A DNA stretch of 64,000 nt from a virus. The notes below the pieces were generated by a model, which saw only the letters and a program-made list of their open reading frames with translations, made no database searches and was not told the origin of the DNA. Positions 1,186 to 18,406 of the stretch are shown one piece after another (the stretch's first letter is position 1; each line of letters starts with the position of its first letter). A program made the translations under genes and the position numbers. The stretch lies in the IMG/VR virus record IMGVR_UViG_3300045988_174170. One strand, given 5' to 3'.

Positions 1186-1200
1186 AATCAGCACCAAAAA

Positions 1201-1248: not shown

Positions 1249-1254
1249 GCACTT

Positions 1255-1524: not shown

Positions 1525-1597
1525 TTGAGAACTATTCACCTCAAACACCCACCTAACGGATAAACAATCATTTTACATGAGAATCATATCCGCAACT

Positions 1598-2104: not shown

Positions 2105-2118
2105 AAGAGTTAGACCCC

Positions 2119-2661: not shown

Positions 2662-2666
2662 AAGAA

Positions 2667-3587
2667 CTACAGCCCTTTCTCTTTACGTAGAGCTTCCAGG
2701 CGTTCCTGTGCCGTCAAGCGGGTAAACTCATAGTCGTTACTACCCTCTTGAACTTCCCGCATACCCTGCAAACGAGCCTCGGCTTCCTCGGCAAGTTTAT
2801 CGAACGCGGAGCCGGTAGTCACGTCGCTAAGCTTGTCCTTCAAGCTATTCACCAGTTCTTGCTGTTTCTGTGAAGTATGCAAATCACCTAGGCGACGCAC
2901 CCCACGCTCAGCTTCCTTCAAGATACTAAGATTGCTCTTAAAAGCCGCCTCCGTATCCTTCAGGAACTTACGGCTAACCCTCAGAGAGTTTTCAGCGTCA
3001 ATAAGCTCGATAGCCAGCTCCTCATTGCGGGCGGCAACCTCTTCAGCATCACCCTTCTTACGCCAACTACTCTGACCCTTCAGGCCAGCTTCAATCTCTG
3101 ACTCTAGACGCTTAACCTTAGCCTCCAACATGGCAATATCATCTAGATAGTCAATGATATTAGGTGCCGAATCACCCAAAGCTTCACGTGTCTCAGCAAT
3201 CAGTTTCAGACCCTTAGCAATCTCTTCTTCGTTTTCCATACCTACACTGCTCATGCGTTCAAAAGCCCTTTCAAAAGTAATAATTTTCTCTAGCCTACTA
3301 TCAGACGGTAAACCCCGCCCAACGTAGTACACCTTAGCCGCCGCCAACGTCTCCCGCCTAATCTTCACCAAGTCAGAGGTAAACATCAGGTCAGCACCCT
3401 CACGTTTCTGTGCACCCCTAGCCTTAATAAGAGCACTCCTCAAACTTTCAGGGCACCCCGTGTCGTAATAAGTAAGCAAAGCATCAGCAAGCGTAAGCTT
3501 CTGCTCCAAAACAAGCATCGGTTCAAGCTCGGTAGGCGGCTCAACCTTAGCTTCACGTCGGAAAAACTTCAAAATAGAACCTTTCAT
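2667..3587 (-). CDS. PspA/IM30 (Vipp1/LiaH)-like coiled-coil protein (tentative)
   Basis: Track ORF 2667..3704. The start is more likely M40 (ATG 3587), because a TGACCG-17-TACAAT promoter lies downstream of the 3704 start. N-terminal amphipathic MKGSILKFFRRE, a long heptad-rich coiled coil, and a C-terminal 'SAFDKLAEEAEARLQGM' reminiscent of the PspA/Vipp1 'AFERMEEKV' helix. Similarity is judged by eye only. Confidence 0.45.
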   Translation of the reverse strand: MKGSILKFFRREAKVEPPTELEPMLVLEQKLTLADALLTYYDTGCPESLRSALIKARGAQKREGADLMFTSDLVKIRRETLAAAKVYYVGRGLPSDSRLEKIITFERAFERMSSVGMENEEEIAKGLKLIAETREALGDSAPNIIDYLDDIAMLEAKVKRLESEIEAGLKGQSSWRKKGDAEEVAARNEELAIELIDAENSLRVSRKFLKDTEAAFKSNLSILKEAERGVRRLGDLHTSQKQQELVNSLKDKLSDVTTGSAFDKLAEEAEARLQGMREVQEGSNDYEFTRLTAQERLEALRKEKGL

Positions 3588-3608
3588 AACAAAATTAATA
3601 ACAAACTC

Positions 3609-3637
3609 ATTGTAGCATGTGTGACATAAGGCGGTCA
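3609..3637 (-). promoter_or_regulatory. sigma70-like promoter TGACCG-17-TGcTACAAT for the PspA-like operon
   Basis: Read on the minus strand: -35 TGACCG (3637..3632), 17-bp spacer, extended -10 TGCTACAAT (3617..3609). Confidence 0.45.
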
Positions 3638-3731
3638 CCCCCGAAACACAAAGGCAAAACACGGTCAGCAAGCTATAGGTTACACAGCCTAAAAAAGACC
3701 CCAAACAACCAGTAAAGGAAACACAGACGCA

Positions 3732-5288
3732 ATGACCACTACCGCTGGGCTTTCACTCAACCAAATGCGCAAAGCAACAAAGCGACCCAACAACGTTGCT
3801 GAAACACGCAAACGACTCAACCGAATCAACGAAGAAGTAGCCGCCCACGCGGAAGTAACCCCCAACGAACAGCCAGCCACCAAAGAAAAAGAAGGCACCA
3901 CCCTCACAGCTGAAGAACTCAATGAAATCATTGAATCAGCAATCAGCGCCGCCGCCAACGCAAACCGAAGCCAAGAAAAACCAGAAAAGACTGAAACACC
4001 CAAAGTAGACACGTCACAAGCACGTACCATCAAGACAAGTCTAGGTGACGGCAACCCGCTACGATACTCAGTGCCCGAAGCCCGCGACGAACCGCCCGGC
4101 TTCCCAATCTGCGCAATCCTAACGGAAGCAATCAACAGGGGCGCAACAGACGTATACATCACCCCAGATACACCTATCCGCTTCAAAATCAAAGGCGGAA
4201 ACAACATCTACGACGGGTTCAAAATCCCAGACCGAACCGAAATTAACCGTATGATGAAGGTAATCATCCCAACAGGTGAACAAGACATCTTCACCTCACA
4301 GAAAGAGCTTGATACCTCATATACGCTACCCCTATACGAACATGCCGGTCGAAGGACACGTCTCAACGTCAGCGCGGCAAGCCCCGGATTCGGTAACGCG
4401 GTACTGTCATTCCGTATCCTAGCCGGAAACCTGTACCATCCAAAGTATTACGGGCTACCTGACGTAGTACTTAAAGCAATGCACCAATCCGGCGGACTTA
4501 TCGTATTCTCGGGACCAACCGGTTCAGGTAAAACAACCAGTATCGCGTCGCTACTACTCTACGCATCAAGGGAAGTACATCGACCCGACGCTAACGGCAA
4601 CCCAACAGGGCCGACAATCATCACCATTGAACGCCCAATTGAGTACCTGTTCGACAATAACAATGAGAAGGCAAACGGCTCACTCTTCATCCAGCGTGAA
4701 GTAGGACGTGACACATACTCATTCGATAACGCTATCTCATCAGCTATGCGACAGCAACCTAACATCATCCTTATTGGTGAGGTTAGGAAGTCAGTTGAAA
4801 TGCAAGCCGCTCTAACTGCCGCAACCACCGGTCACCTGACCTTGACCACAGTACACGCCGAAGATACAGCGGGTATTATCCAGCGCCTTATGAGTGCCGC
4901 AGACACCGGTGCGAACACCCGTGAAGACGTTCTACGTTCAATTGCCGCCTCTGGTCGAGTCTTTGTCACGCAGGCTCTAGTAGACCGAATCGACGGCGAA
5001 AAGATAGCTGTACACGAAGTTCTTGTCATCAAGCAGTCTGACCAGTCCCTCATTCAGGCAATTCAAGAAGGCGACTTCCGACATATCCGTCAGTCTCTAC
5101 AAGCAACAGGTGAAGACATGAGTAGTCGCCTAGTGGAACTTTGCCGCGAAGGTGGGCCTTGCTACGTCGAAGCGGCGTTGAAGCACAGCCCCGACCCCAA
5201 TAGGTTCTGGCAACTTATCCAGCTTGAAAAGTCGAACGGAATTGAGCACAACTATGACCCGAACAAGAAGGAAGAAGACCTGTGGTAG
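3732..5288 (+). CDS. PilT/GspE/VirB11-family secretion (traffic) ATPase
   Basis: Walker A 'FSGPTGSGKTTS', Asp box 'IITIERPIEY', Walker B 'NIILIGEVR', His box 'TGHLTLTTVHA'. The N-domain 'AILTEAINRGATDVYITPDTPIRFKIKG' is PilT-N-like. AAAGGA RBS. Confidence 0.85.
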   Translation: MTTTAGLSLNQMRKATKRPNNVAETRKRLNRINEEVAAHAEVTPNEQPATKEKEGTTLTAEELNEIIESAISAAANANRSQEKPEKTETPKVDTSQARTIKTSLGDGNPLRYSVPEARDEPPGFPICAILTEAINRGATDVYITPDTPIRFKIKGGNNIYDGFKIPDRTEINRMMKVIIPTGEQDIFTSQKELDTSYTLPLYEHAGRRTRLNVSAASPGFGNAVLSFRILAGNLYHPKYYGLPDVVLKAMHQSGGLIVFSGPTGSGKTTSIASLLLYASREVHRPDANGNPTGPTIITIERPIEYLFDNNNEKANGSLFIQREVGRDTYSFDNAISSAMRQQPNIILIGEVRKSVEMQAALTAATTGHLTLTTVHAEDTAGIIQRLMSAADTGANTREDVLRSIAASGRVFVTQALVDRIDGEKIAVHEVLVIKQSDQSLIQAIQEGDFRHIRQSLQATGEDMSSRLVELCREGGPCYVEAALKHSPDPNRFWQLIQLEKSNGIEHNYDPNKKEEDLW

Positions 5289-5688
5289 AGTAGCGTAAAC
5301 TGCATAACAAAAACCCCTCAAGAGAATCATCTTGAGGGGTTTTTGTTGTTATAACCTTATGGCTTTACAGTCCGCGAGAGTAATAGCCACATAACATGCC
5401 ACAGATAGCCCAAGAAGCCACCATATAGCCCCTAAAAGCAAGCTTATTACTAGTAAGTGGGCTATGAAAAACCTTGCCTTTAGAGAGCTATATAAGGATT
5501 CAACACACATACTGGAATATATTAGGAAAGGTGGACACCATACAGAAGTAAAGACAAAATATACACAACTAGAACAACGGAACCTACAGGCAGGAAGTCG
5601 AGCACCAGCCACGTAGCCCAGCATACGTAAAAAGGGGAACCTTCAGCACAATCAAGCTAAAGGTTCCCCCTTTTTTTGTCACGACACA

Positions 5689-7332
5689 CTAGAAACTAAA
5701 AACAGATTCCGTATTCTCAAACACGCCACCTTCAGGACGTTCCAACCTGTAAGCAACAATACGGTCAGAAACCCCCTCCTCAGTAGCCCACTTATTCACG
5801 CGGCGAACCATAGTGTCCGATGTGCACAACCAAACCACCTTACTGAACACTGAACGGTCATCACGGTACTGCTCCAAAATCTCAACCAGCTTACCCCTAG
5901 ACTTAGAGGAACCACGCTCAACCTCAACCGCAATACTACGCGCCTCACCATTCTCACCACGCGGCAAAATAGCCACAATATCCGGCACATGGAAAGTCGC
6001 TGTAGAAGCCGCCGACAAAACAGCCCACATCCACTCATTACCACCAAAACACTCAGGGCCAACACCACTACCACCACCAGCACGCCACTCACGCAAAATC
6101 CTAGCACGCTCAGCAATCAGATAATCACGCATCTCAAGCGCATTATTACCCCTCAAAAGACCCTGCAAAGAACCATTAATCTGACGGTCAGACACAACGT
6201 TAAACCCACGAAGAGCAGAACCACCTGAAGAACGACCACCCCAAACACCAGTACCAAGATTCAATACGTCAGTAGACCCGCACCACAACAAGGCACCAAC
6301 ATATGTAACAAGAACCCTATGCGGAAACTCCATATTGCCCAAAGATGAACGCTTAAACGCGCCGCCACCAACACCAAACTCATCAAGCCCAACACGAGTA
6401 CCCACCCAAACACGGTGACCACCAGCACCCGCAACATCAACAGCCTCAATACAGCCCCTAGACTGCAAACCCTTCAAATACTTCAAAGCCGTAACACGAG
6501 TAGACACACCAAGCAAAAGCATAGTAGCCCTAACATCAACCCAACCAAAAATACCGATAAAGCTCATAATCTCAACCTCACGGCGAACACCCATAAGGCG
6601 AGGACGAACACCACCATCAGCACGCTCCTTAGAACGCAAACGCTTCACCCTAGCCTCAACAACATCAGGCGACTCGCCAACCAGCGGCGGCGACACAACA
6701 TCAACACCACCAACACGACTCAACCAATAAGAAGACTGCTCAACAGCCAAAACATTAGAAACTTCAACAGACGACATAACGCCGCCCCTCCCATCATAAT
6801 CAAACCTAAAAGAAGACAAATCAGAAACACCAACACCAACAGGTAACCCCAAAGAACCAGAACCGGAACCAGGCGGCGCAACAAGACCACCCAAAACCAA
6901 ATCCTCAACCCCCGCAGACTCACCCAAAGCACGGGCACCAACACCACCAACAGGAACCCTAAACCCATCAGCAACAGCGTTCAAATCAACCGAACCACCA
7001 AAAGACCAACGAGCACGCGGCGTAACACCAAATGAAAAACCACCATGAGTAAACACAGAACCAGACCAGCCCGACACAGAGGCATCCCACACATAACCCG
7101 AACATTCAGATTCAAACGACCTAAACGGCTTAGGAATATCCGAAAAATCCCTCACACCAACACCACGCTCAAGAACCGACGTGCCACCATGAGGCCAAAC
7201 AAACCCCTCCGTCACATGAGACAAACCAACACCAGAAGGGAACGCCCCCGGCAACAAGCCAGCACCAACACCAGCAATAGCACCAATAACAGGCTTAGAA
7301 ACAGCAGAACCAGCCAAAACCAGAACCTCCAA
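5689..7332 (-). CDS. replication-relaxation (Replic_Relax)-like winged-helix protein with ~260-aa Gly-rich N-terminal extension
   Basis: The C-terminal half 'REVEIMSFIGIFGWVDVRATMLLLGVSTRVTALKYLKGLQSRGCIEAV ... HVPDIVAILPRGENGEARSIAVEVERGSSKSRGKLVEILEQYRD' matches the architecture of plasmid replication-relaxation family proteins, recalled from memory. TTG start, so the start is uncertain. Confidence 0.5.
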   Translation of the reverse strand: MEVLVLAGSAVSKPVIGAIAGVGAGLLPGAFPSGVGLSHVTEGFVWPHGGTSVLERGVGVRDFSDIPKPFRSFESECSGYVWDASVSGWSGSVFTHGGFSFGVTPRARWSFGGSVDLNAVADGFRVPVGGVGARALGESAGVEDLVLGGLVAPPGSGSGSLGLPVGVGVSDLSSFRFDYDGRGGVMSSVEVSNVLAVEQSSYWLSRVGGVDVVSPPLVGESPDVVEARVKRLRSKERADGGVRPRLMGVRREVEIMSFIGIFGWVDVRATMLLLGVSTRVTALKYLKGLQSRGCIEAVDVAGAGGHRVWVGTRVGLDEFGVGGGAFKRSSLGNMEFPHRVLVTYVGALLWCGSTDVLNLGTGVWGGRSSGGSALRGFNVVSDRQINGSLQGLLRGNNALEMRDYLIAERARILREWRAGGGSGVGPECFGGNEWMWAVLSAASTATFHVPDIVAILPRGENGEARSIAVEVERGSSKSRGKLVEILEQYRDDRSVFSKVVWLCTSDTMVRRVNKWATEEGVSDRIVAYRLERPEGGVFENTESVFSF

Positions 7333-7417
7333 AAAGAATCAACAAAAACAAGGTATAAAACAGGCGCAACCCCGCAAAATCAGAGCCGCGCCCACCACCA
7401 ACATAGCGGCAAATAAA

Positions 7418-7437
7418 AAAGTGTGCTACAATTATAA
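7418..7437. promoter_or_regulatory. back-to-back overlapping divergent extended -10 promoters (TGCTACAAT on + / TGTTATAAT on -)
   Basis: gtgTGCTACAATtataacagta. The + strand element feeds 7478 and its reverse complement TGTTATAAT feeds 5689..7332. Confidence 0.4.
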
Positions 7438-7477
7438 CAGTACTTGGTAAACCCCTACAGATAAGGACACCCAACAA

Positions 7478-7669
7478 GTGAACACCCCAACCAACGGCAA
7501 GAACTACCTCAACGGCAAGCTCATTGAAAACCCCATCGGATACCTCTTCGGAGCGGATTATGCAGAGACGCTAGATGAAGACACTAAAGCCTACATGGAA
7601 TACCTTGTTAAGGAGTTTGATAGTTGGGACGAAGAAGCAAAGAATAGCAACACCGAAAGCGAACAGTAA
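7478..7669 (+). CDS. hypothetical protein (GTG start)
   Basis: 63-aa ORF with AAGGA 12 nt upstream. Confidence 0.45.
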   Translation: MNTPTNGKNYLNGKLIENPIGYLFGADYAETLDEDTKAYMEYLVKEFDSWDEEAKNSNTESEQ

Positions 7670-7671
7670 CA

Positions 7672-7986
7672 ATGTTTAGCCAACAGGAATATTATCCCAT
7701 CCTGGCACTAACACTAGAAACCCGTGTACGTAGACCAATGGGCGGAGGCCCACAGTTGGCACGTATGCTAGTCGTACACTTCGTAGACGCTGAGAATAAC
7801 CCCTGCTACAAAACCTATGGATACTCAGGGATGAGCCCAGAATACGACCTGCCCACTGTAAAAATTGTCTTCAAAAACACCGACACCCCCTACCTTGTTA
7901 AGGCGGGGAATAATGGGCGTGACGAAATCCAGCTAAGCAAAGACCATTGGAAAAATATCCATACCGGTAACGTAAGCCTAATCTAA
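7672..7986 (+). CDS. hypothetical protein
   Basis: 104-aa ORF tightly packed after the previous gene. Confidence 0.5.
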   Translation: MFSQQEYYPILALTLETRVRRPMGGGPQLARMLVVHFVDAENNPCYKTYGYSGMSPEYDLPTVKIVFKNTDTPYLVKAGNNGRDEIQLSKDHWKNIHTGNVSLI

Positions 7987-8017
7987 CCCACCCCTAAGAC
8001 AGAAAGATATTCAAAAC

Positions 8018-8284
8018 ATGAATAACTACACCGTCATCAAAATCCAGTTTGAAACCATCGTAACCGAAAGAACCACATCATACAATACACAGAGCGCAAC
8101 CCGCGTACATTACCTGCAAACCGACGGTACAGTAGCGTCAGTTCGGTACGACCCCGGCGAGCTGAAGATGGTTCTTGACCAGCACGAAGGTAAACTACCC
8201 TACCTCACCGACGATAATGTACTACACGTACACCCGGAACACCTGAAAGACATTCAGACTTCCGTCATCAGGTACTTTAAGTAA
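8018..8284 (+). CDS. hypothetical protein
   Basis: 88-aa ORF, followed by a 17-bp perfect GC hairpin at 8311..8361. Confidence 0.5.
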   Translation: MNNYTVIKIQFETIVTERTTSYNTQSATRVHYLQTDGTVASVRYDPGELKMVLDQHEGKLPYLTDDNVLHVHPEHLKDIQTSVIRYFK

Positions 8285-8394
8285 ACCTGCAAACCAAACC
8301 CGCTAAGAAACGCCCCGGCGGGGCGGCATAAACCACCCCAAACCATGCCGCCCCGCCGGGGTGCACAAGCACTACAGAATAGGAAAACCAACCC

Positions 8395-9186
8395 ATGCTG
8401 AATAACCTTGAGCCCGGCGACATCATCATCACCGATGACCACTTCTATAAAGTCACCCGCACAATGCGCACCCTACGAGGTGTCCTCACCTCAATGCACA
8501 TCCTCGGCAAGGAAGGCGCGGAACAGTATATTAATGCAGAAGGTGGGTACCCCATTGAGCTTATCGGCGGCTTTGACCACATCAAGAAGTCGGAAAATGT
8601 AGATATTGAAGAGTTGTTCGATATGGAACGCGGACGGGATGAACTCATTGAAGGATACACCAAAATTCAAACCCTACTGCCGGGAGCTTACAAGCCCGCC
8701 CAGCCGTCTAAAGCTAACAACCCCAACAGCACCTCATGGATGCTCAACCACCCCGACAAGCTGACCCTAAGCCTACACCCAGCTAAGTGTGAAGAAGAGC
8801 TGGAAAAGATAAAGAGCCTACTAGAAGAAGCGGAACGCAAGCTTCATGATGCGGCATGTGATATTCGAGAGGGGCGCAAAAAGTATGCCGCCAAATACAC
8901 GGAGGTAGCAATCGAGAACGCCACCTATCTAGAAACCGAAGAACACCGCAAGAAGTTCTGCAAAGCAATCAAAGAGGCATACCACGAAAGCTTCCCCTGG
9001 GAAAACCAGCCTTTCAACATCGCCTACCCCCGAATCTACAGCACATCATTCCCTGAAAAATTGCACGCGAAACTTCAGGAAAACGTGTACAACACACACC
9101 AGGAAATTATTAAATCACTACTAGTAATCGAATACCTCGACACCCTAGCGGAAACCCTATACGGTGAACCCAATAAAAAGGGTTAA
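8395..9186 (+). CDS. hypothetical protein with N-terminal 'PGDIIIT' motif
   Basis: 263 aa. The motif LEPGDIIITDD is shared with 16024, 32636 and 42749. RBS AGGAAAA. Confidence 0.6.
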   Translation: MLNNLEPGDIIITDDHFYKVTRTMRTLRGVLTSMHILGKEGAEQYINAEGGYPIELIGGFDHIKKSENVDIEELFDMERGRDELIEGYTKIQTLLPGAYKPAQPSKANNPNSTSWMLNHPDKLTLSLHPAKCEEELEKIKSLLEEAERKLHDAACDIREGRKKYAAKYTEVAIENATYLETEEHRKKFCKAIKEAYHESFPWENQPFNIAYPRIYSTSFPEKLHAKLQENVYNTHQEIIKSLLVIEYLDTLAETLYGEPNKKG

Positions 9187-9234
9187 ACCCTAAAACAAAT
9201 AACCCAACAGGTGCACCCCACCAAGGAGTAAAAC

Positions 9235-9786
9235 ATGACAAAACCCAAGAGCCTATCTTACGGAAACATCAACAACCGCTACATCTTTCACAACTCGTTT
9301 GATACCCCCAGTAGGTACTACTGGACAGCCGATAAAATCGCTAAGCGCGAGAATGAACTCCGCAAAGCAGGCTGGGTAGCACTCCCAGGAACCTTCACCC
9401 TAGACGACCCACAGCGAGAAATCGTTGAGGTTAAACCGGGTACTGAAACCACCAAACACCTAGTGCACCTCATCAGGTTCCTTGCGGGCAAGCACAAGAG
9501 GGAAACTGGCACCCCCTACAAAATGTACGCGCACCTCAATGTATCGGTAAACACCAAAGATGAAGACGGCATTGGTGTAGTCGAAATCAATACCACCTTC
9601 ACTAGTGACCCCGAAGGTAAACACAAGATTGGTGTATCAATGACCACCTGCCTAGATGAACCTTGGGAACTCAGTACTGAAGAATGGCTCAAGATGGACG
9701 GTAAAACCTACCCCATCGGAACCCCTATCTGGAGCGACTGGCACAAAGACATCGAAATCCTAATCAACCCCAAACAAGGTAAATAA
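9235..9786 (+). CDS. hypothetical protein, paralog family C
   Basis: 183 aa, about 55% identical by eye to 10875..11441 (GWVALPG.FTLD.PQR.IV..KPG.ET.KHL.HL..F.AGKH...TGTPY.MYAHLNV). Confidence 0.7.
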   Translation: MTKPKSLSYGNINNRYIFHNSFDTPSRYYWTADKIAKRENELRKAGWVALPGTFTLDDPQREIVEVKPGTETTKHLVHLIRFLAGKHKRETGTPYKMYAHLNVSVNTKDEDGIGVVEINTTFTSDPEGKHKIGVSMTTCLDEPWELSTEEWLKMDGKTYPIGTPIWSDWHKDIEILINPKQGK

Positions 9787-9890
9787 CCCCATAACATAAC
9801 GGCAAAGGGCGCCCCTGAACAATCAGTAAAAGGGGTGCCCTAAACGCCACACTAAACCACCAACACCAAAAACACGGAGAGTAAAACACC

Positions 9891-10790
9891 ATGCGAATCC
9901 CCCTAGCACCCCACACCCTAACCGTAGGCGAAGCCTTCATCCTACAAAACAACAACGAAAAATCCCTATACAAAGTAACCCACACCGAAGGCAACACCAT
10001 CACCGCCGAACGCAAACACACCACCAACAGTGAAACAGCACCCCAAACCATCACCGGAACCCTACTCAACGGAACCCTAACCACCACCACACCAGTACAC
10101 AACACCCGAACACCCAAAATCATCGACCTCAACACCACCAAAACCAACACCATAAAAGCCACCACCAACAAACCCGAATACACCATCATCAGCAAGAACA
10201 CCAACGAAGACATCAACATCTGGCAAACCATCGAAACAATCACACCAGACGTAACCCTAGTACAATCACAAACCACCCCCACCCAAAAACGCATACACCT
10301 AACACCCCAACTACAAAAAGAAATCAACACAAACACCACCAACCTAACCCCCACACACACATTCTACCTAAACAACAACAACACAGAATGTGTACCCCAC
10401 GACGCGGCAAAAGCCCTAAAAACCATCATCAACCACCCCCACTGGAACGCCCTAAAACAAAAAGCAGTCAAGAATAATGACTGGGAAACCACCCTAACCA
10501 CCGACTACCTAACCGACACATACTGGGAACAAATCAGCACCGACTACAGTGACGGCTACGCATGGGGAGTCTCCTACGACCTCATCATCGACTACACCAT
10601 CGACTACGCAGAAGAGCTAAAACACCTCACCAACAGCACCGACCCCCAAACCCCAAACAGCAAAAACCTAACACCCAAACAACAAAAACAACTCACCACA
10701 ATGCTGAACAACGTCATCAAAAAACTCGAACAATCCGAATGGTACGAACCCGACCCCGAAGACTACACCATCATCCCCTACATCGAATAG
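9891..10790 (+). CDS. Thr/Asn/Pro-rich low-complexity protein with structured acidic C-terminal domain
   Basis: 299 aa, GGAGAG RBS, flanked by the family-C paralogs. Its C-terminus (DWETTLTTDYLTDTYWEQISTDYSDGYAWGVSYDLIIDY) is non-repetitive. Confidence 0.5.
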   Translation: MRIPLAPHTLTVGEAFILQNNNEKSLYKVTHTEGNTITAERKHTTNSETAPQTITGTLLNGTLTTTTPVHNTRTPKIIDLNTTKTNTIKATTNKPEYTIISKNTNEDINIWQTIETITPDVTLVQSQTTPTQKRIHLTPQLQKEINTNTTNLTPTHTFYLNNNNTECVPHDAAKALKTIINHPHWNALKQKAVKNNDWETTLTTDYLTDTYWEQISTDYSDGYAWGVSYDLIIDYTIDYAEELKHLTNSTDPQTPNSKNLTPKQQKQLTTMLNNVIKKLEQSEWYEPDPEDYTIIPYIE

Positions 10791-10874
10791 TTTGCATACC
10801 CCTAGCCGGTGTGGTAACCTATACCTACAGGTGCCACACCGGTACCCCAAAACACGCAACCAAGGAAATCAAAA

Positions 10875-11441
10875 ATGAAGTCTTACGAAGATGACATCCT
10901 AAACGGGTATATGTTCTGGGATGACGATAAATGGAATTACAAGGCGAAGATGGTTACTGAAGCTGAAGGCTACCCCTGTGTGGAGCACGCTATCATGTGG
11001 GACAACAGGTTCCGCAAATCAGGCTGGGTAGCACTCCCAGGAGCCTTCACCCTAGACGAACCCCAACGAAAAATCGTCAAAGCTAAACCGGGTCAAGAAA
11101 CAGCTAAGCATCTGATGCACCTCATGGCGTTCCACGCAGGCAAGCACCAGAAAGCAACCGGCACCCCCTACAATATGTACGCGCACCTCAACGTATGGGT
11201 GAACTCCGGTGACGAAGACGACCCCCACGAAATCGGAATTGACGCAACATTTACCAACGACCCCGAAGGTAAAAACCCGGCAGGTGCTTCAATGGCAACC
11301 TACCTAGCAGGTGACTGGGGTGGGCTAACCATGAAAGAATGGCTCAAGCTAGACGGTAAAACCTACCCCGTAGGTTGCCCCATCTGGACAGACTGGGGCA
11401 ACCGAATCGAAATCCTCATCCACCCAAAACGGGGTAAGTAA
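10875..11441 (+). CDS. hypothetical protein, paralog family C
   Basis: 188 aa, paralog of 9235..9786. Confidence 0.7.
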   Translation: MKSYEDDILNGYMFWDDDKWNYKAKMVTEAEGYPCVEHAIMWDNRFRKSGWVALPGAFTLDEPQRKIVKAKPGQETAKHLMHLMAFHAGKHQKATGTPYNMYAHLNVWVNSGDEDDPHEIGIDATFTNDPEGKNPAGASMATYLAGDWGGLTMKEWLKLDGKTYPVGCPIWTDWGNRIEILIHPKRGK

Positions 11442-11455
11442 CCCCAACACAATAA

Positions 11456-11492
11456 GCCCCGGCAACCCAAACAAAACACAGGTTACCGGGGC
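11456..11492. terminator. GC hairpin terminator
   Basis: CCCCGGCAACC ... GGTTACCGGGG followed by CTTC. Confidence 0.45.
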
Positions 11493-11552
11493 TTCATGCT
11501 ACCTTTTCAATACAGAAATCGCGTATCCCGCACTAAGGAAGGAACACCCACC

Positions 11553-11777
11553 ATGAGCTTCTACCACACCAACTGTAGCTACGACCCTACCGATGCCATA
11601 GGCAACGACGACGAATGGAACCCAGGAGAACCAGACTGGCAAACCAACGAAGAAGAATGGGACTGGATAGCTTGGAGAAACAACATCGCCATGTCCGAGC
11701 CACCAGAACACGAATACGAAGACTACCCCAACAGTCCATATGAAAGCGTCTCTGTTGCACTTGAAAACAGGGAATAA
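11553..11777 (+). CDS. small acidic Trp-rich protein
   Basis: Track ORF 11496..11777. The ATG at 11553 has AAGGAAGG upstream. Confidence 0.5.
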   Translation: MSFYHTNCSYDPTDAIGNDDEWNPGEPDWQTNEEEWDWIAWRNNIAMSEPPEHEYEDYPNSPYESVSVALENRE

Positions 11778-11816
11778 GTAAACACCACCAACACCACGTC
11801 GCATATACAGCAAAAC

Positions 11817-11853
11817 CCCCGGCAACCCGCACACGCAGGAAACCGGGGGTTTA
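11817..11853. terminator. bidirectional terminator between convergent genes
   Basis: CCCCCGG-N20-CCGGGGG + TTT. Closely resembles the 11456 hairpin. Confidence 0.5.
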
Positions 11854-11904
11854 CTAACACCCAAAACACCAAACAAAACACCACACCAAACCAGACACTA
11901 AACC

Positions 11905-13422
11905 CTACAATAGGTCAGACACAACACCGGCAACATCCACCAAATCAACACCTAAGCCCGCAACCGGCGAACCCACCGGAACATCAACAACACCACCAAC
12001 AAACCCCTCGCCAACACCAGCAGAACCACCAAACAAACCAGCAGAACCACCACCACCATTCACAACACCAACCGGCGAACCATAACCCTCACTACCACCA
12101 ATAAAACCCAAACCCAAACCAGGCACAATATCAGAACCAGAACTAGAACCCGAACCAGAACCAGCAGAAATAGTACCTACAACATCACCCCAACAGGCAC
12201 GACCAACACCACCAACAACACTATCAACCCAATTACGGACAAGCCACCAACCGGCGAAACGACCCAAACCAGCAACCCTAGCCTCAACCGGCGAAACACC
12301 ACCCAAACCACCAACAGAACCAAACTCAACATCAGGCACATCAACCAATGCAACACCATCAACAGACCCAGACACACCAACCCCAACAGAACCCGCCACA
12401 TCAACAAAACCAGCAGGAGCCAAACGCGAACCAAACACCAAACCCCTATGTGTCACACCATCAACAACAACCTCAGACCCAACACCAACACCACCAGAAA
12501 CACCAACAACACCAGGAACAAAACCACCAGCACCCAAACCCGAAACACCCAAAACACCACGCCAACCAGAACCCCCACCACCAACAGACAAAACACCCAA
12601 AGAAGCCGAAGACAAACCCCAAGACACAGACAAACCACCAAAACCAGACACACCAGACACCACAGGAACACCCACCAAAGACACACCACCAGAACTACCA
12701 GAAACACCACTAGAAATACCCGAACCCACACCAACACTCAAAGGAAAACAACCCACCAAAGCATCACCAACACCACGCCAACCAGAACCCCCACCACCAA
12801 AAGGCAAAGCACCAAACCCCACAGACGAAACACTCAACCCCGAAAAATCACCAACAAAACCCTCCCACAAAGGAACACCAACACCACCAACAACAGACAA
12901 ACCACCACCAGAAACACACCCCAAAACACCACCACACTCCTCCACAAAAGACAAAGACACACCCTCAGACACAGACACCACACCACCACCAGAACACACA
13001 CCACCCACAGACACCAAAAACCCATCCCAAACACTAGAAACAGACCCGGACACACCAAAAGAATCAACAAAACCCACAGAAGCCTCATAGGGGCACTCAA
13101 ATACACTAGAGGTATAATCACCCACCCCAACACCAAAAGAACCCATAGAAGGCTCCACAGGGGGTGTAAAAGAATGACCATACCCCCACGCCTCCTCAAC
13201 ATTAGAAGCAATAAACCCCCTACCACTAACACCCCAAGCAGAAGACTGCCAACCACACTGCACAAAACCAGGCATAGTCAAACCACTAGCAGACGGGGGA
13301 TTATGACCAACAGGGGTATAAAGTACACCACCATCAGGTAGCGTATCACCTATCGGCGGGGCTGTTAGAGTGCCAGGAACCCACGTCTCAACAACACCAA
13401 TAACAGTGCTATCTACAGCCAT
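11905..13422 (-). CDS. Gly/Val/Ser-rich 505-aa protein with internal repeat GGGGSGWRGV
   Basis: Track ORF 11905..13443 (TTG). The ATG at 13422 is preceded by GGGAAAGGG. The non-repetitive N-terminal 100 aa and the terminator at its 3' end support this strand over the mirror-image + strand Thr/Asn ORF. Confidence 0.5.
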   Translation of the reverse strand: MAVDSTVIGVVETWVPGTLTAPPIGDTLPDGGVLYTPVGHNPPSASGLTMPGFVQCGWQSSAWGVSGRGFIASNVEEAWGYGHSFTPPVEPSMGSFGVGVGDYTSSVFECPYEASVGFVDSFGVSGSVSSVWDGFLVSVGGVCSGGGVVSVSEGVSLSFVEECGGVLGCVSGGGLSVVGGVGVPLWEGFVGDFSGLSVSSVGFGALPFGGGGSGWRGVGDALVGCFPLSVGVGSGISSGVSGSSGGVSLVGVPVVSGVSGFGGLSVSWGLSSASLGVLSVGGGGSGWRGVLGVSGLGAGGFVPGVVGVSGGVGVGSEVVVDGVTHRGLVFGSRLAPAGFVDVAGSVGVGVSGSVDGVALVDVPDVEFGSVGGLGGVSPVEARVAGLGRFAGWWLVRNWVDSVVGGVGRACWGDVVGTISAGSGSGSSSGSDIVPGLGLGFIGGSEGYGSPVGVVNGGGGSAGLFGGSAGVGEGFVGGVVDVPVGSPVAGLGVDLVDVAGVVSDLL

Positions 13423-13475
13423 ACTTAAAGCCCTTTCCCGCAATCACAAAAGTGTGACATAAACATAATTTTAGT

Positions 13476-14360
13476 GTGTTATATCTTCTACAAAATTCCG
13501 AGCGGAACACAACCCCCAGAACAGCAATCAAAAAAAATACCCATAGCAAAGGGCTAATAAAAGACGACCCCCAGCACAAAACCCGAATAAAAATAACAAA
13601 AATTTTCCAACACGCCACACCCACCAAAAAACACAAACCACCAAACCCAAAAAACAAGCGCCCATCACACCACCATGATAAACGCCACAACAAACGGGTA
13701 ACACGCAACACAACAGTACACAGCACACATACAGAACACAGAGAAGAACATACACAGCCACACAGGATACATACATACAGGAGAGCGCACACAGGCAGAC
13801 ACATATAGATACATGCAGACAATATACACAGACACACAATAGACACATAAGAGTAACAGGCACACAAGCAACAGACCCAAGGAGAACAACACACAAGACA
13901 CACACAACAGACACATACAGGGGAACAACACATAAGACACAGAACAAAGAAGACCACAAACACAGACACAATAGACACACAAGAGACAAAACACAGGAAC
14001 ACAAGAACACAACAAGGGCACAGGGGAACAGAGGGAACAAAAGCTAGACAGAACACACCAACAACACAGCTAGACAGAAACAACACAACAGACACACAAT
14101 AGACACACAGAGAACAGCTAGACAGAACACACGGGGGGTAACACACGGAACAGAGTAAAGGTAAAGAAGGCTAGACAGGGCACGGGGTAATAAGGGGTAG
14201 AAGAAGGGCGGGTAGAAGGGGAAGGAAAGGGGGGCGGGAAAGAGGAAGCGAAGGGTGGAAGGTAGAGCGGGGTGGTAGTAGGTGGGGTGGTGGTGTTTAT
14301 TCTCTGTTTTGTTTTGTTTTTTGGGGTGGTTTTTCTTGTTTTTGGCTGTTTTTTGGGGGT
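13476..14360. repeat. non-coding low-complexity tract graded CA-rich to GA-rich to GT-rich, with iteron-like direct repeats
   Basis: Three copies of CACAATAGACACA(T/C)A(A/G)GAG at about 13836, 13967 and 14096 with ~130-bp spacing. Four copies of GCTAGACAG at about 14043, 14069, 14117 and 14170. Purine-only GA stretch 14160..14280, GT-only stretch 14280..14420. Confidence 0.7.
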
Positions 14361-14376
14361 GTTTTTTGGTATAATG

Positions 14377-14386
14377 GTTTTGGGTG
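14377..14386 (+). promoter_or_regulatory. extended -10 promoter TGGTATAATG
   Basis: Consensus TGnTATAAT, rightward. Confidence 0.4.
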
Positions 14387-14557
14387 GTTTTTTTGGTATC
14401 TAGCCCTGTGTGGAAAGTAGCCTTTTGCCTTGTCAGGGCGTTATGCACTGTGGTGCATTTTCTTCATTTTTGGGGTCTATAATCAACCTGTAGGGGTTGT
14501 TTTTGGGTTGGTGGGGCACCTTACTCCTGTTTAGGGTATGTGGGTGGGGTTATTTTA

Positions 14558-14565
14558 GGTATAAT
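14558..14565 (+). promoter_or_regulatory. extended -10 promoter (a)GGTATAAT(g) upstream of 14607
   Basis: Second copy of GGTATAATG, 40 nt before the start codon. Confidence 0.4.
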
Positions 14566-14606
14566 GTGGGTTATGTACTGTTCAATTGACGGCTGGAGGC
14601 GTATCT

Positions 14607-14816
14607 GTGTTTGCTACGACTGGTGAGATTCTTTACGTGTTTTTCAGTGGCGCGTTGTTCACTTGTTTTGGGGCTTGGTTCTTTTGGAGGGCGGGTGATA
14701 AGAAGCTTATTTCGCGTGATGGGGTGCATATGGCGTGCTTGTTTTTAGTTCCGGGTGTTCTGTCTATTGTGGTGGCATTGCCAGTTGTTCTGAGGTTAAT
14801 GTTTGGTTGGTCATAA
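14607..14816 (+). CDS. small membrane protein
   Basis: Track ORF 14586 (TTG). The GTG at 14607 has GGAGG 7 nt upstream. Two TM segments. Confidence 0.4.
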   Translation: MFATTGEILYVFFSGALFTCFGAWFFWRAGDKKLISRDGVHMACLFLVPGVLSIVVALPVVLRLMFGWS

Positions 14817-15098
14817 TAAGTAGGAACGCGAGCGCCTAACTGTGAAGGAAGAAGTACCCATCGGGGCGGCTACAGGAACCACCGAAAGCATCGAAGCCGA
14901 AGGCAGTAAAGTACCTGAACCTACCGAAGTAACCGGTAGTATTCTTAGCGACGGAGAACGCGCTGAACTCAAAGAGGCTGAAGAGGCACCGGGTGCACTC
15001 AATGACTAGCCATATAGTTGTTACTGTCGTGTAACGCCTAGACGCAGTTCAGGTCACCCCCCCGCGAGCGCTTACTAGTTGCTTGTACGTGTATTGAA

Positions 15099-15141
15099 CA
15101 CCCCCTAGTGGTTATCCGCCGCTAGGGGGGGGTCTTTTTTT
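15099..15141 (+). terminator. rho-independent terminator
   Basis: CCCCCTAGTGGTTATCCGCCGCTAGGGGGGGG followed by TCTTTTTTT. Confidence 0.6.
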
Positions 15142-15250
15142 GGGGGGGGTGTTGCTTGTGTCTATATGTGCTGTCTGTGTCGCCTGTGGTAGGATGGGGG
15201 TATCTTATTGTTAGTATTGCGGGGGTGTACCCTGAGAGGATTTGATGTTT

Positions 15251-15424
15251 ATGATTGAGCCGTATGTGTCGTTGGTTTGGTGGGCTGTTGGTTGCCTTGT
15301 GGTTGCGGTGGCGTTTGAGGTGGTGGCTTTTAGGTGTGCGTCTGTTGGGCGGCGTTCTTGGTGTGGTTGGTTCTTCAGGCTGGGTTACAGTTTCGGTGGT
15401 TGAGCATAAGCGCCCTGGTAGGGA
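15251..15424 (+). CDS. 57-aa membrane peptide
   Basis: The ATG has GAGAGGA 10 nt upstream. The same 'GGA(A/G)GGATTTGnTnTTT-ATG' context recurs at 16024. Below the track size cut-off. Confidence 0.3.
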
Positions 15425-15656
15425 TAGTGCCTCTGAGATTCGTACTGCTTACACGTGGAGCGAGGTGCGCGGCAATGAGACTGTCGCTAAGACTACTACT
15501 GTTGAGCAGGATGACGTTTCGGTAGTTGAAGACGTTGCGGCGGGTGGCACGCCGTGGGTTGAGTACATTCCCATGTATCATCTTGTGCCTGCTGGCATTT
15601 TTGATGGTTCGCACGCTGACCCGGTTCAGGGTAAGCTCTGTGTTCGGGGGGCGTGA
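15255..15656 (+). CDS. hypothetical protein (alternative frame, TTG start; true start unclear)
   Basis: The C-terminal 85 aa are non-repetitive (VEHKRPGRDSASEIRTAYTWSEVRGNETVAK...), but there is no convincing RBS. Confidence 0.25.
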   Translation: MSRMCRWFGGLLVALWLRWRLRWWLLGVRLLGGVLGVVGSSGWVTVSVVEHKRPGRDSASEIRTAYTWSEVRGNETVAKTTTVEQDDVSVVEDVAAGGTPWVEYIPMYHLVPAGIFDGSHADPVQGKLCVRGA

Positions 15657-16023
15657 TACTGACTGTAAGGTGAACGCATTGCGGGCGAACATGAAGTATG
15701 TGCTACATGTCCCGGCGAGCGCCTAATAGTCAATGAACTATCACGCTAGAGGTGGCGTCAAGTTCCGGCGGGTAAGCGCCTCTAGTCGCACCCTAGTTGC
15801 TCAGCGGTAGCCCGTAGTGCCCACGCTCAGCTTTTGACTTAATGTGGGTACTACGGGCTTTTCTGTGCCCTCCTGTAACCTTTCAAGGATTCGGGTATTG
15901 TGGTTACCCGTGTCCGGCGCGTACTGTACATGGCGGCTTGTCTATGGTAGGATAGGTGTATCTTATATTGTTGTTACCCCCTGTTGGTTAGGGGGTGTGT
16001 TCTTTTGGAAGGATTTGTTTTTC

Positions 16024-17127
16024 ATGTCTGTTGTGTCTGTTTGCCCTGGTGATGTTGTGTCTACTGGTGTGGGTGTTCTGCATGTGGGGTCTGTTATTGT
16101 GGAGCGTTCGCGTGAGGGTGAGTCTTTTGCTGTGTCTGGTGTTACTGGTGATGGTGTGGTACGTGCGGGTGTTCCTGTCACTGATGATGTGGTTCCGTTG
16201 GCTGTTGATGCGTCTGATGCTGAGGCGTTGGTGTGGTTTGACCGTGAGCGTTATTTGAAGCGTTTGAGTGAGGCTGTGTTTTGTCCGGGTGATGGGTTTG
16301 CGGCTTTGGGTAGGTGTATGTCTGAGTGGGTGGATTTGTCTTTGTCTGACCGTGAATCGGTTGATGCTGTTCTTGAGCGTCTGGTCAAGGTTGATGCTGG
16401 TCTTGTTTGGGATTACCAGTGGGTTGTTAGGAAGCGTGCTGAGTGCTTGGAGGCGTTTGAGGATTTTCATGCGGGTTGGTTGAAGTATCAGAGTAAGCCT
16501 TGGAGTGAGCCGGTTTTGGGTGAATGTCGTAAGATTGATGCCCATAAGGTTGTTGGTGGTGTTGAGCTTAGGGTTGGTGGTATCTATCAGTTCCGGCGTG
16601 CTGATGCGCCTGTAGAGGGCGGGTATGAGTACTTTAAGGTTGTTAGTAGTAACTATAACCCTGAGATTATTCTTTATGGTGCGTCTACTAGGGTGAATGG
16701 TTGTTCGGGTGTTATTATTAGCAGTAATGGGGGTTTTGTTTCTTACGCTAACCTGCGGGCTAAAGTGGGTGATGAGCTGTTTTGGATTGATGCGGATACT
16801 GTGAAGCTTCTACCTATTGGCTCTCTTAATGATATTGACTCTTACCTTGAGTTGAGCGAGTATGCGGACGTTTCTCTTTCTGAGGCATTGCAGGGGATTT
16901 TCCTTGACATGTTCAGTGCCGATGAAGGTAAGCCTAAGTGCCTACCTGTTCGTGAGGAACTTGATGATGACCGCTACTGTTGGGATGATGATTATGCTAA
17001 GTGTCGTGGTGTGCTGATGTCTGCTACTGCTGACCTGCTGTTCGATATTGAGAAGAGCCTTGGGCATGTCCGGTGGGTGCGTGACCAGCTGAAAGTCTTC
17101 TACCGCGAACTAGGGTTCACCTTCTAG
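16024..17127 (+). CDS. hypothetical protein with N-terminal 'PGDVVST' motif
   Basis: Track ORF 15844. M61 (ATG 16024) has GGAAGGA 11 nt upstream. Motif CPGDVVSTG. Confidence 0.55.
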   Translation: MSVVSVCPGDVVSTGVGVLHVGSVIVERSREGESFAVSGVTGDGVVRAGVPVTDDVVPLAVDASDAEALVWFDRERYLKRLSEAVFCPGDGFAALGRCMSEWVDLSLSDRESVDAVLERLVKVDAGLVWDYQWVVRKRAECLEAFEDFHAGWLKYQSKPWSEPVLGECRKIDAHKVVGGVELRVGGIYQFRRADAPVEGGYEYFKVVSSNYNPEIILYGASTRVNGCSGVIISSNGGFVSYANLRAKVGDELFWIDADTVKLLPIGSLNDIDSYLELSEYADVSLSEALQGIFLDMFSADEGKPKCLPVREELDDDRYCWDDDYAKCRGVLMSATADLLFDIEKSLGHVRWVRDQLKVFYRELGFTF

Positions 17128-17296
17128 GGGCTAAGAGGGGTTAGTCTATGGAGTCTCTGACCAGGTTTAGGTAACCGCCTGTACTGGAAAGGTGGCACCC
17201 GTTTAGGTGTGTGCGTCTCAGTGGGTGCGGGTCTAAGTGGGTGTATTCCTTGGTGGGTGTGTTCCTTACTGGTGGTTGCCTGGATGGTTCACTGTG

Positions 17297-17340
17297 TGCG
17301 ATAATGGGTGCGAGTACCAACTCAAGTACTCGCACCCATT
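17297..17340 (+). promoter_or_regulatory. extended -10 promoter TGcGATAAT overlapped by a perfect 15-bp inverted repeat (operator-like)
   Basis: AATGGGTGCGAGTAC-caactcaa-GTACTCGCACCCATT starts inside the -10 element. Downstream lie GGAAGGAAGG and ATG 17374. Confidence 0.45.
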
Positions 17341-17373
17341 ATTTATTTCTTGTGGAAGGAAGGTGTACCTATC

Positions 17374-17715
17374 ATGGGTACTGTGCAGGATAGCCTGATT
17401 AGTAAGTTCGGTTGGGGTATCCGTGATTCGCTTGAAAGCTTTGAGGAAGCTGAGTGGAGCGAGGCGGTGGCGAACGCAGGCGTTTCCCCCGCTGAGGCAC
17501 GCCGCACGTTCATGGTTGGGCTGTTGCGAGAGATTGAGTCTCTAGTCAATAAGGCTAGGTATAGTGGTTCCATGTGGCGGCTACAGCACCTTGAGCGTAA
17601 AGTGAGCGAACTGATTGTTTCCAGGTTTGAGGAAGAAGAGAAGACGGTTCGTGGTCGTATCGACAAGTTGCGCGAAGCGCTAGAGACTGTAGTCGAAATC
17701 AACAGCCAGAAATAG
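17374..17715 (+). CDS. hypothetical protein
   Basis: Track ORF 17308. M23 is preceded by GGAAGGAAGG. 113 aa. Confidence 0.55.
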   Translation: MGTVQDSLISKFGWGIRDSLESFEEAEWSEAVANAGVSPAEARRTFMVGLLREIESLVNKARYSGSMWRLQHLERKVSELIVSRFEEEEKTVRGRIDKLREALETVVEINSQK

Positions 17716-17989
17716 TCATAAGTGCTTAACATTAGGCGAGAGAAGCCGCCATACGCCCTGTACCGCCCCTCTAAAGGGTCGCAAGTGCCTGTGGTGGCTC
17801 TTTCCTTTCTTAGGGGTGCGAGCGCCCACTGTGTCCACTGGTGGTGGTTCTGTTGCCGCCCGTGTGGTGCTAGTGGCTTAGTGCTAGTGAAAGCTTGTAT
17901 GAGCGCCTACGTGGTATCATTGGGGGTGGGATACCTTGAGGGTTCCCACCCTGTTTTGTTTACTGGCTTATTGAAAGGATGTGCCTGTT

Positions 17990-18406
17990 ATGGGTGTTGT
18001 TGGTTTTATAGATTTGTTTGCACCTTTCCGGTTCTTGATTGAATCCCCACCGTGGGTTTCATTCTTCGTACCCGGTCTTGTGCTTCCTGTGGCTTTGCTA
18101 GTTATTGGAGTTATTGCCACCGCTATTAACCCGGCACTTGGGTTTATTTCCGTGCTTTATGTCATGATTGCTTGGGTTGGTGGGGTTCCAATAACCTTGG
18201 CTGTGGTTCTTTATAACGCCGGGGTTCATGATAGTTTCCCTTTGGGTTTACTTGTGATACTAGGGTTCATGTCGAACACTGTTGTTGCGGCGACGGTGTT
18301 CGCGACTATCTGCTGGGTTCTTGAACGCTTTGTAGGTGAAGAGCCTGTAGAAGCTGTTGAGTCTGGACGGGTTAAGACCTACCCCCCATATGAGAAGACC
18401 TCTTAG
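17990..18406 (+). CDS. membrane protein related to family G (MFVDxxNxF...PxW..F.PG)
   Basis: Track ORF 17981 (GTG abutting the SD). The ATG at 17990 is 9 nt after GAAAGGA. 4 TM. N-terminus GFIDLFAPFRFLIESPPWVSFFVPG. Confidence 0.55.
   Translation: MGVVGFIDLFAPFRFLIESPPWVSFFVPGLVLPVALLVIGVIATAINPALGFISVLYVMIAWVGGVPITLAVVLYNAGVHDSFPLGLLVILGFMSNTVVAATVFATICWVLERFVGEEPVEAVESGRVKTYPPYEKTS

Follow-up and report, generated by a model that had tools for sequence, protein, structure and literature searches.

A two-sided strand-composition flip at a conserved non-coding, candidate origin-like site in large elements from human oral metagenomes

Strand skews are a standard computational handle on replication origins, and they are normally weak and genome-wide. 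In vertebrate mitochondrial DNA (mtDNA), strand asymmetry is tied to strand-displacement replication from the origins OH and OL, and the strength of the bias is related to the time that a strand spends single-stranded. G-rich non-template DNA that is prone to form R-loops is known from CpG-island promoters, from immunoglobulin switch regions and from the R-loop origins of T4 and ColE1. For vertebrate mtDNA, one account describes the light (L) strand as AC-rich and the heavy (H) strand as GT-rich (PMC1794132). In the plasmid RSF1010, the origin oriV is opened in opposite directions and carries priming hairpins on complementary strands, and the synthesis from it is leading-strand-only and leaves displaced single strands (PMC8567376). 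Here we describe a 64,000-nucleotide stretch of DNA recorded as viral (IMG/VR record IMGVR_UViG_3300045988_174170; hereafter the window, numbered from its first letter on the + strand), in which the skew is near-total, local and two-sided, and in which it changes sign at a non-coding tract.

Like vertebrate mtDNA, the window has one G+T-rich and one A+C-rich strand, it is skewed in both GC and AT, and the bias drives its choice of synonymous bases and of amino acids; the extremes reached at fourfold-degenerate sites in the window and a relative (G+T 0.01-0.98) are at least as strong as those of mtDNA. Unlike in mtDNA, the asymmetry is two-sided, flips its sign at one site, covers a few kilobases of an element of ~300 kb and is known from sequence alone. 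Searches of the literature turned up no description of a bacterial element with a strand purge of this kind, at once local, near-total and two-sided.

Size, polarity and gradient of the flip

The G+T content of the + strand steps from 0.22 to 0.74 around positions 14160-14280. When adjacent 600-bp windows were compared, the biggest step was 0.52, at 14160, and the runner-up elsewhere in the 64 kb was 0.25; in 200 shuffles of 100-bp blocks, the top step was only 0.295. The flip is sharp and lies well outside chance expectation. To its left, + strand G+T is 0.10-0.35 across most of positions 1-14130, with some 200-bp windows at 800-5400 reaching 0.40-0.53, and three hyper-skewed A+C patches are present (5689-7400, 9800-10800 and 11800-14130; G+T 0.10-0.27), the lowest values (0.10-0.17) being found at 10000-10400 and 11800-13000. 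To its right, G+T is 0.80 at 14201-14400 and then 0.6-0.8 until ~18400, interrupted by a patch of normal composition at 14800-15000, and from ~19.6 kb to 64 kb the strands are near parity (+ strand G+T ~0.46). GC skew and AT skew change sign together at the switch, so both transition classes would be involved. An earlier note on this DNA, made from its letters, had described a sharp switch at ~14.15 kb with an A+C-rich left side, holding long runs nearly free of G and T, and a G+T-rich right side; all of this holds, and the switch is stronger than was described.

The same note stated that the bias follows the strand and not the direction of the genes, and fourfold-degenerate sites bear this out for both gene orientations, in the window as well as in a relative (L006). 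At these sites, + strand G+T is 0.24-0.34 in the + genes on the left; 0.09-0.22 in three of the four minus-strand open reading frames (ORFs) on the left, among them 11905-13424, which is without coding constraint, and 0.47 in the fourth; 0.67-0.91 in five of the six + genes at 14586-18406; and 0.32-0.56 in most + genes past 19.6 kb. In L006, genes of both orientations alternate on one side of the switch, and their fourfold-site strand G+T is 0.98, 0.98, 0.96, 0.95, 0.72, 0.84, 0.83 and 0.61 in order of rising distance. Since these alternating genes share a strand G+T that falls with distance, the bias tracks the strand and how far a gene lies from the site. Genes that face the site from 3-7 kb into the skewed zone have coding-strand G+T of 0.02 and 0.05 in L006 and of 0.01 in the window (ORF 9891-10790). 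The last of these provides a counter-example, within the window itself, to a bias set by gene direction; a gene caller assigns it to the + strand, and its coding signal is weak and ambiguous as to strand, with a ratio of non-synonymous to synonymous differences (pN/pS) of 0.45 in the + frame vs 0.53 in a minus frame. At synonymous sites both the C→T and the A→G classes are seen on the same strand regardless of gene direction, as a statement about composition only, in which the direction of mutation is not directly seen.

On both sides, the 5'→3' direction of the G+T-rich strand leads outward from the site. This polarity fits strands displaced at an origin bubble, lagging-strand templates, or the non-template strands of divergent transcription; it is opposite to that of 5'→3' resection at a break and is incompatible with a single transferred strand. 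A mean profile of + strand G+T was computed relative to the switch in 1-kb bins over 19 representative loci of the family described below. It runs at ~0.40 from -18 to -10 kb, at 0.31-0.26 from -9 to -4 kb and at 0.20-0.24 from -3 to 0 kb, steps to 0.70 at 0 to +2 kb, and then declines through 0.64, 0.59 and 0.54 between +2 and +5 kb to 0.47 by +5 kb. The gradient is two-sided with a step at the site, and the baseline is reached by ~9 kb on the left and by ~2-5 kb on the right. Where the end of the G+T domain is visible, its length is 1.6 kb (the L010 clade) or 4 kb (the window), and it is more than 4.9 kb in L003.

Conservation and anatomy of the switch locus

Its relatives place the window in a family of large elements (290-370 kb) from human oral metagenomes that appears not to have been described before and whose contigs cluster at 255-371 kb and have a GC content of ~49%. 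The T2SSE-type ATPase of the window (3732-5288) is encoded residue for residue on human oral metagenome contigs. A 547-amino-acid (aa) protein, which served as the family marker, belongs to a protein family with nine clusters in 5.8 billion proteins, all of them metagenomic and on contigs of up to 367 kb, and a profile scan of metagenome contigs with this family gave 60 loci. IMG/VR includes one diverged relative, entered there as a viral contig. Megablast against phage and plasmid collections gave no match to the window, and no relatives were found among 185,579 GTDB species-representative genomes scanned with the T2SSE ATPase and the 547-aa profile. The remaining ~50 ORFs tested gave almost no protein family matches. 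Identity with Inocles was rejected, as their GC content is 24-32% vs 49% here.

The flip is found at the same conserved non-coding locus in every relative that is long enough, which amounts to ~45 loci from several deep clades, and it is shared across clades in which the marker protein is only 48-63% identical. In these relatives, G+T steps from 0.12-0.26 to 0.68-0.81, and in the most distant clade from 0.17 to 0.57. Genes adjacent to the locus are strongly mosaic, with 41-98% identity between the window and L003, and the patches of skew may reflect differences in how long genes have been in the zone.

The most distant clade (L064, L066 and L070) differs: over ~0-4 kb directly left of the core, the marker gene and its neighbour show no skew or a slight G+T excess on the + strand, and the A+C domain, broken off there, resumes further left. 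This interruption is an exception that any model must accommodate. Seven contigs of 70-371 kb (L028, L035, L040, L054, L057, L061 and L063) end at scattered spots inside the hyper-skewed zone, which suggests that short-read assemblies tend to break there, through low complexity or loss of coverage.

The switch lies in a tract of ~1.1 kb, the parts of which are listed in Table 1 together with the other features of the window. Among the indels that distinguish the tract from L003, 5 of 14 are multiples of three. Gene callers put a 245-aa ORF across the core in ENA contigs (13409-14146, minus strand; also 13476-13808, + strand, and similar ones), but DNA made only of A+C or only of G+T cannot hold stop codons, so the ORFs called in the tract are artefacts of composition and carry no weight. 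The earlier note's view of the tract as non-coding is thereby upheld. Its description of a grading from CA to GA to GT is equally borne out, the fractions being 0.79 for A+C at 13600-14130, 0.82 for A+G at 14131-14283 and 0.91 for G+T at 14284-14400. The length and sequence of the core vary among relatives, in which the order CA, GA, GT and the GCTAGA-type motifs are retained.

Seven TAGACA cores lie at 13840-14177, every one on the + strand. The note had counted three copies of a repeat spaced by ~130 bp; two of them, at 13835 and 13967, are exact and are the only matches of the 19-mer CACAATAGACACAYARGAG, and the third, at 14096, has just its 13-nt core CACAATAGACACA. The four-copy repeat that it had also reported proved exact in all copies (GCTAGACAG), and this sequence is absent elsewhere in the 64 kb (chance expectation 0.38). 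The GCTAGA core of GCTAGACAG is common to most clades and, across loci, is 15-fold enriched at -500 to +300 of the switch. As for the outward-facing promoters, three rightward TATAAT hexamers are present, making up 3 of the window's 21 and including one with an extended TGn, but no -35 element is recognisable for any of them and a two-hexamer promoter scan called none; the leftward side has only the -10-like hexamers TATAAC (13478-13483) and TAAAAT (13468-13473), which belong to the left conserved block and would serve the leftward ORF 11905-13443.

The hairpin of the left conserved block is conserved within the window's clade only. The right module is unique within the window, and nearly all clades have it, at 150-680 bp to the right of the switch and with a 21-nt box GCCYTTYSCCYWGTCAGNGCG that is frequently duplicated. 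It shows no covariation among relatives and no Rfam match, so conservation is demonstrable for its sequence but not for an RNA structure; the conserved blocks fold no better than shuffles (z = -1.4), and the Rfam scan gave no match anywhere in the tract. An inverted duplication relating the left and right blocks was considered and rejected, since their likeness is compositional only. Extra copies of the 21-nt box occur 1.4-4 kb right of the switch, inside the G+T domain, in L003, L030, L033, L034 and L038, which suggests a reiterated regulatory or priming element heading several units.

Table 1. Features of the window in order of position (G+T values are for the + strand unless stated otherwise).
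Feature	Position	Strand	Remarks
A+C-rich domain of the + strand	1..14130		overall G+T 0.33
547-aa protein gene, family marker	5689..7332	-	pN/pS 0.08 vs L003; fourfold-site coding-strand G+T 0.91
Thr/Asn-rich ORF, 299 aa	9891..10790	+	fourfold-site G+T 0.01; A+C-rich coding strand
First leftward ORF, 512 aa	11905..13443	-	long Gly/Val/Ser-rich low-complexity body
Non-coding switch tract, ~1.1 kb	13444..14585		indel pattern vs L003
Left conserved block	13475..13715	-	near-identical in window and L003; 13-bp hairpin and T-run at 13657-13686
CA-rich low-complexity core	13716..14130	+	CACAATAGACACA at 13835, 13967 and 14096
Four exact GCTAGACAG repeats	14043, 14069, 14117, 14170 (14043..14178)	+	spacing 26, 48 and 53 bp
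Purine (GA) tract with G-runs	14131..14283	+	sole G-quadruplex motif on the + strand of the window (14206-14238)
T-tract-rich G+T segment	14284..14369	+	G+T 0.91
G+T-rich domain of the + strand	14284..18400		G+T 0.65; small + genes without family matches
Rightward TATAAT hexamers	14370-14375 (TGgTATAAT), 14478-14483, 14560-14565	+	all three perfect
Conserved right module	14420..14503	+	box GCCTTTTGCCTTGTCAGGGCG at 14420-14440; hairpins ATGCACTGTGGTGCAT (14443-14458) and ATCAACCTGTAGGGGTTGTTTT (14482-14503), a T-run after each
tRNA-Glu(TTC)	63794-63867	+	sole RNA gene detected in the window (Rfam scan)

Explanations for the asymmetry

We tentatively read the tract 13444-14585 as a conserved, cis-acting, origin-like unwinding site, at which initiation of the strand-displacement or R-loop type leaves displaced strands recurrently single-stranded; this we consider a real possibility, if somewhat short of a probable one. 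What is observed is the flip with its polarity and gradient, the lack of any dependence on gene direction, and a site conserved together with its motifs; from these we infer single-strandedness, deamination as the cause and a role in replication. The duplex would be opened both ways from the tract, by strand displacement or R-loops and not by a fully coupled fork. The strand running 5'→3' outward, minus on the left and + on the right, would be the displaced one, and it would remain unpaired until synthesis of its complement was primed some kilobases off. Deamination of C to U and of A to hypoxanthine is much quicker in single-stranded than in duplex DNA, so the displaced strand would drift to G+T and its partner to A+C, the drift being greatest beside the site and fading across 2-10 kb. 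Genes entering the zone would gradually be recoded, which would account for the patchiness and for the odd amino-acid composition of the resident proteins. The TAGACA/GCTAGA repeats would bind a protein, the purine/G-run tract together with the A- and T-tracts would ease opening, and the hairpins with T-runs found on either outward strand would signal priming or termination.

Several findings, some in the layout of the element and some in its variants, weigh against this reading. The skew is patchy at gene scale and often gene-delimited, so that gene turnover has to be assumed in addition. Over the ~70 kb of the ~300 kb element in which skew was read, the cumulative GC skew has its minimum at 14 kb and falls again past 21 kb, the far baseline leans mildly to A+C with the same sign on both sides, and backbone genes lie on the + strand on either side with no change of orientation at the site. 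Given a local skew, a same-sign baseline and a GC skew that falls after 21 kb, the flip is not the inflection of a replichore-scale skew; the skew plot that the earlier note had proposed as a check, read over these ~70 kb, shows no replichore-wide inflection here, the skew being confined to about -9 to +5 kb. No DnaA-box cluster was found. No initiator, helicase, primase or polymerase family was matched by the ~55 ORFs of the window and left flank in comparisons with Pfam and PHROG, which is weak evidence, since most of these proteins match nothing. The repeats are short and irregularly spaced, and GCTAGACAG is clade-specific. What holds of the bidirectional origin proposed in the note is the outward polarity, the strand-following bias, the non-coding site and the repeats and flanks conserved across deep clades, but the skew is local.

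Rare variants were polarised within three clades on reference-anchored BLAST pseudo-alignments. In the hyper-A+C zone, 282 singletons erode the skew and 70 restore it (~4:1), the counts for variants present in 2-3 genomes are 157 and 82 (1.9:1; Fisher p = 1e-4 vs singletons), and high-coverage contigs repeat the pattern of eroding variants. At the fourfold sites of hyper-skewed genes, 1342 invariant positions hold a preferred base and 24 an unpreferred one, and the singletons comprise 56 eroding and 6 restoring changes. The per-site ratio of restoring to eroding changes is ~6 at these sites vs 1.75 in baseline genes, and a ratio of ~20-30 would be required to hold the observed 3-5% of unpreferred bases. 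A homoplasy test gave no consistent excess marking hypermutable sites, and no deaminase-like dinucleotide context was found on the G+T strand (TC 1.14, GC 0.72). Synonymous sites of the T2SSE orthologues are saturated at 45-53% amino-acid identity, and comparisons of close pairs offer too few differences to polarise. The earlier note's conclusion that the bias is "therefore mutational" is not secured, as rare variants within clades mostly erode the skew. By a back-of-envelope estimate, multiple hits at the few unpreferred sites can give singleton ratios of 1:2-1:3 even at equilibrium; multiple hits thus blunt the polymorphism test, which is also limited by small counts, and the excess of eroding variants is not contrary to a mutational reading. 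It does keep alive the possibility of a selected or episodically renewed asymmetry.

The same variants can be set to the credit of an asymmetry that is kept by selection or fixation bias, since eroding changes prevail more strongly among rare than among intermediate-frequency variants, and since they also prevail among fourfold singletons. A two-letter strand has neither palindromes nor Watson-Crick self-structure; it would lack most restriction sites and would remain free of structure during unwinding or on first entry into a cell. The lack of consistent homoplasy and of an enzyme-like dinucleotide context agrees with such selection, as does the fact that in every clade the skew is still present at saturation divergence and is shared by neighbouring genes without homology. 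However, avoidance of palindromes alone leaves unexplained why the sign is uniform on each side and why it flips at one conserved, 5'→3'-polar point. Selection would have to act site by site on thousands of synonymous and non-coding positions and at a cost to protein composition, which is demanding, and the frequency test is confounded by multiple hits, with a restoring rate that is still ~6x the eroding rate vs 1.75x in the baseline; on balance we judge selection an unlikely cause. Very strong divergent transcription that starts in the tract, whether or not it forms long R-loops, would likewise produce the asymmetry if it exposed the non-template strands to deamination, with no role in replication, and the polarity that it predicts is identical to that of an origin. 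The three rightward TATAAT and the leftward -10-like hexamers, the outward orientation of the first gene on either side, the non-template G-runs at the switch, which favour R-loops, the short and variable G+T domain (1.6-4 kb or more), which resembles a transcription unit, and the additional conserved-box copies deeper in the G+T domain of some relatives are all in keeping with it. As in known R-loop systems, the skew begins at a promoter-bearing site, has G-runs on the displaced strand, spans kilobases and diverges as at bidirectional sites. Unlike in those systems, T/A as well as G/C is purged, the phenomenon is so far seen in DNA sequence only, and genes that face the site carry the bias of the strand. 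The coding strands of these genes are equally extreme in the opposite sense (G+T 0.01-0.05), so their own transcription is not the cause and antisense read-through would have to dominate; moreover, the skew runs past the terminator-like hairpins at 15101-15129 and 17300-17343 in the G+T domain. Transcription without replication therefore seems improbable to us.

A conjugative origin of transfer (oriT) with an adjacent leading region, in which the single strand that is transferred would be the source of the skew, is suggested by a module resembling a type IV secretion system in the left flank (a weak TcpE-like match and AAA_10/VirB4-like, ParA-like and T2SSE/VirB11-like ATPases) and by the nuclease-like motif of the 547-aa protein. 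Transfer of the same strand all round the element should give skew of the same sign across nic, unlike the opposite signs and the maxima on both sides of the site that are observed, and no relaxase family was matched among the scanned proteins, so that we rate this explanation as quite unlikely. It is very unlikely that the flip is purely historical, a pre-skewed segment having been inverted or imported beside oppositely skewed DNA with no present process at the site: the patchy, gene-delimited skew and the mosaic neighbours would suit such an event, but the site is the same conserved non-coding one in all clades, the gradient exists on both sides, and non-homologous neighbours are affected. 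We give hardly any credence to a packaging site or a physical genome end that was joined in the assemblies and from which replication would start. The polarity suits the joined ends of an end-replicated linear genome and ~7 large contigs stop inside the skewed zone, yet those contigs end at differing positions, displacement initiated at ends predicts a gradient over half the genome and not over 2-10 kb, and the centre holds neither a terminal repeat nor a palindrome. Of the large contigs, well over half continue across the site without a break, which also makes the packaging or terminal-repeat alternative offered in the earlier note unlikely.

Among described origins, the tract is like the oriV of the IncQ plasmids RSF1010 and R1162 in having direct repeats beside G-rich and A/T-rich stretches, and perhaps in the arrangement of hairpins with T-runs on the outward strands, one on the minus strand in the left block and two on the + strand in the right module. 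Unlike at that origin, no RepA/RepB/RepC homologues were found, the scanned ORFs matching no family of IncQ RepA helicase, RepB' primase or RepC initiator; the repeats are shorter and irregular, and the element is ~35x larger. No sequence likeness of the tract to the RSF1010 iterons or to ssiA/ssiB was apparent by eye, and we know of no comparable local skew described for IncQ. With theta origins of the oriC type it shares a G+T-rich (leading) strand that runs outward on both sides and a minimum of the cumulative GC skew at the site; unlike them, it has a skew that is not replichore-wide, a same-sign baseline, no DnaA boxes and no change of gene orientation, and the magnitude is an order above that of usual replication skews. 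As a replichore-scale skew and simple transcription are both contradicted, a local process at an origin-like opening site remains; it would leave a given strand single-stranded over kilobases, less so with distance, as is the case in strand-displacement systems. The observation itself is confirmed and extends to the whole family of elements; its interpretation as an origin is partly supported, through a mechanism that is inferential.

Genes of the skewed zone and what the flip would mean

The 547-aa protein is under strong coding constraint and is kept in all clades, with the invariant motifs FRFDYDGRG, GVTPRARWSFGG and HxPD...AVEVERG..K, and it is rich in Val, Gly, Ser and Arg, a composition forced by G+T-rich codons. 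On inspection of its sequence, the C-terminal half may hold a winged helix followed by a PD-(D/E)xK-like nuclease motif (HVPD...AVEVERG..K). The protein gave no match in Pfam and none in a profile search of the PDB, and its AlphaFold2 model, with a mean predicted local distance difference test (pLDDT) score of 38, is too poor to assess the winged-helix/nuclease reading. The first leftward ORF (11905-13443) differs from L003 at 84, 70 and 74 first, second and third codon positions and has a pN/pS of 0.80, which amounts to no detectable coding constraint. The hyper-A+C ORF 9891-10790 is flanked by two paralogous + genes of normal composition (9235-9786, 183 aa, and 10875-11441, 188 aa), and a corresponding pair of paralogues is present in L003. 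A shared N-terminal motif of ORFs 8395-9186, 9891-10790 and 15844-17127, whose A+C and G+T versions seemed interconvertible by transitions, was withdrawn, as none of the nucleotide, purine/pyrimidine or protein alignments of the three was better than those of shuffles.

Right of the switch, long hairpins with perfect or near-perfect stems of 12-19 bp, some of them with T-runs, sit between the small genes (15101-15129, 17300-17343, 19279-19322 and 20932-20967, all on the + strand). To judge by its family matches, the gene set of the left flank looks more like a conjugation or secretion module than like a phage. Further right on the + strand are two proteins that match PHROG 5070 and 7964 (46289-47341 and 59154-60491) and one SPFH/flotillin protein (54746-56314); the two PHROG families are polymer-forming or bactofilin-like in some phage annotations, and together these genes are an unusual cytoskeleton/membrane cargo.

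As a broader conclusion, which we regard as possible but doubtful, these giant oral extrachromosomal elements would carry a previously undescribed origin-like site, around which two bases are purged from each strand, either by strand-specific single-strandedness over kilobases or by selection for DNA free of structure and palindromes. If this is true, synonymous sites are recoded almost completely, resident proteins are pushed to Thr/Asn/Pro-rich or Val/Gly-rich compositions, and the zone is a standing natural experiment on how far coding tolerates two-letter DNA. If the skew marks opening of the duplex, it would indicate, from sequence alone, where initiation takes place and how long the single-stranded phase is in an abundant, uncultured oral family of ~300 kb elements; a selected skew would instead amount to a novel way of designing sequence, free of palindromes and of self-structure. 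The skewed zone also explains the assembly breaks and the spurious ORFs that gene callers report in these elements. Either way, real conserved proteins, of which the family marker with its pN/pS of 0.08 is an example, are encoded here almost wholly with two bases per strand.

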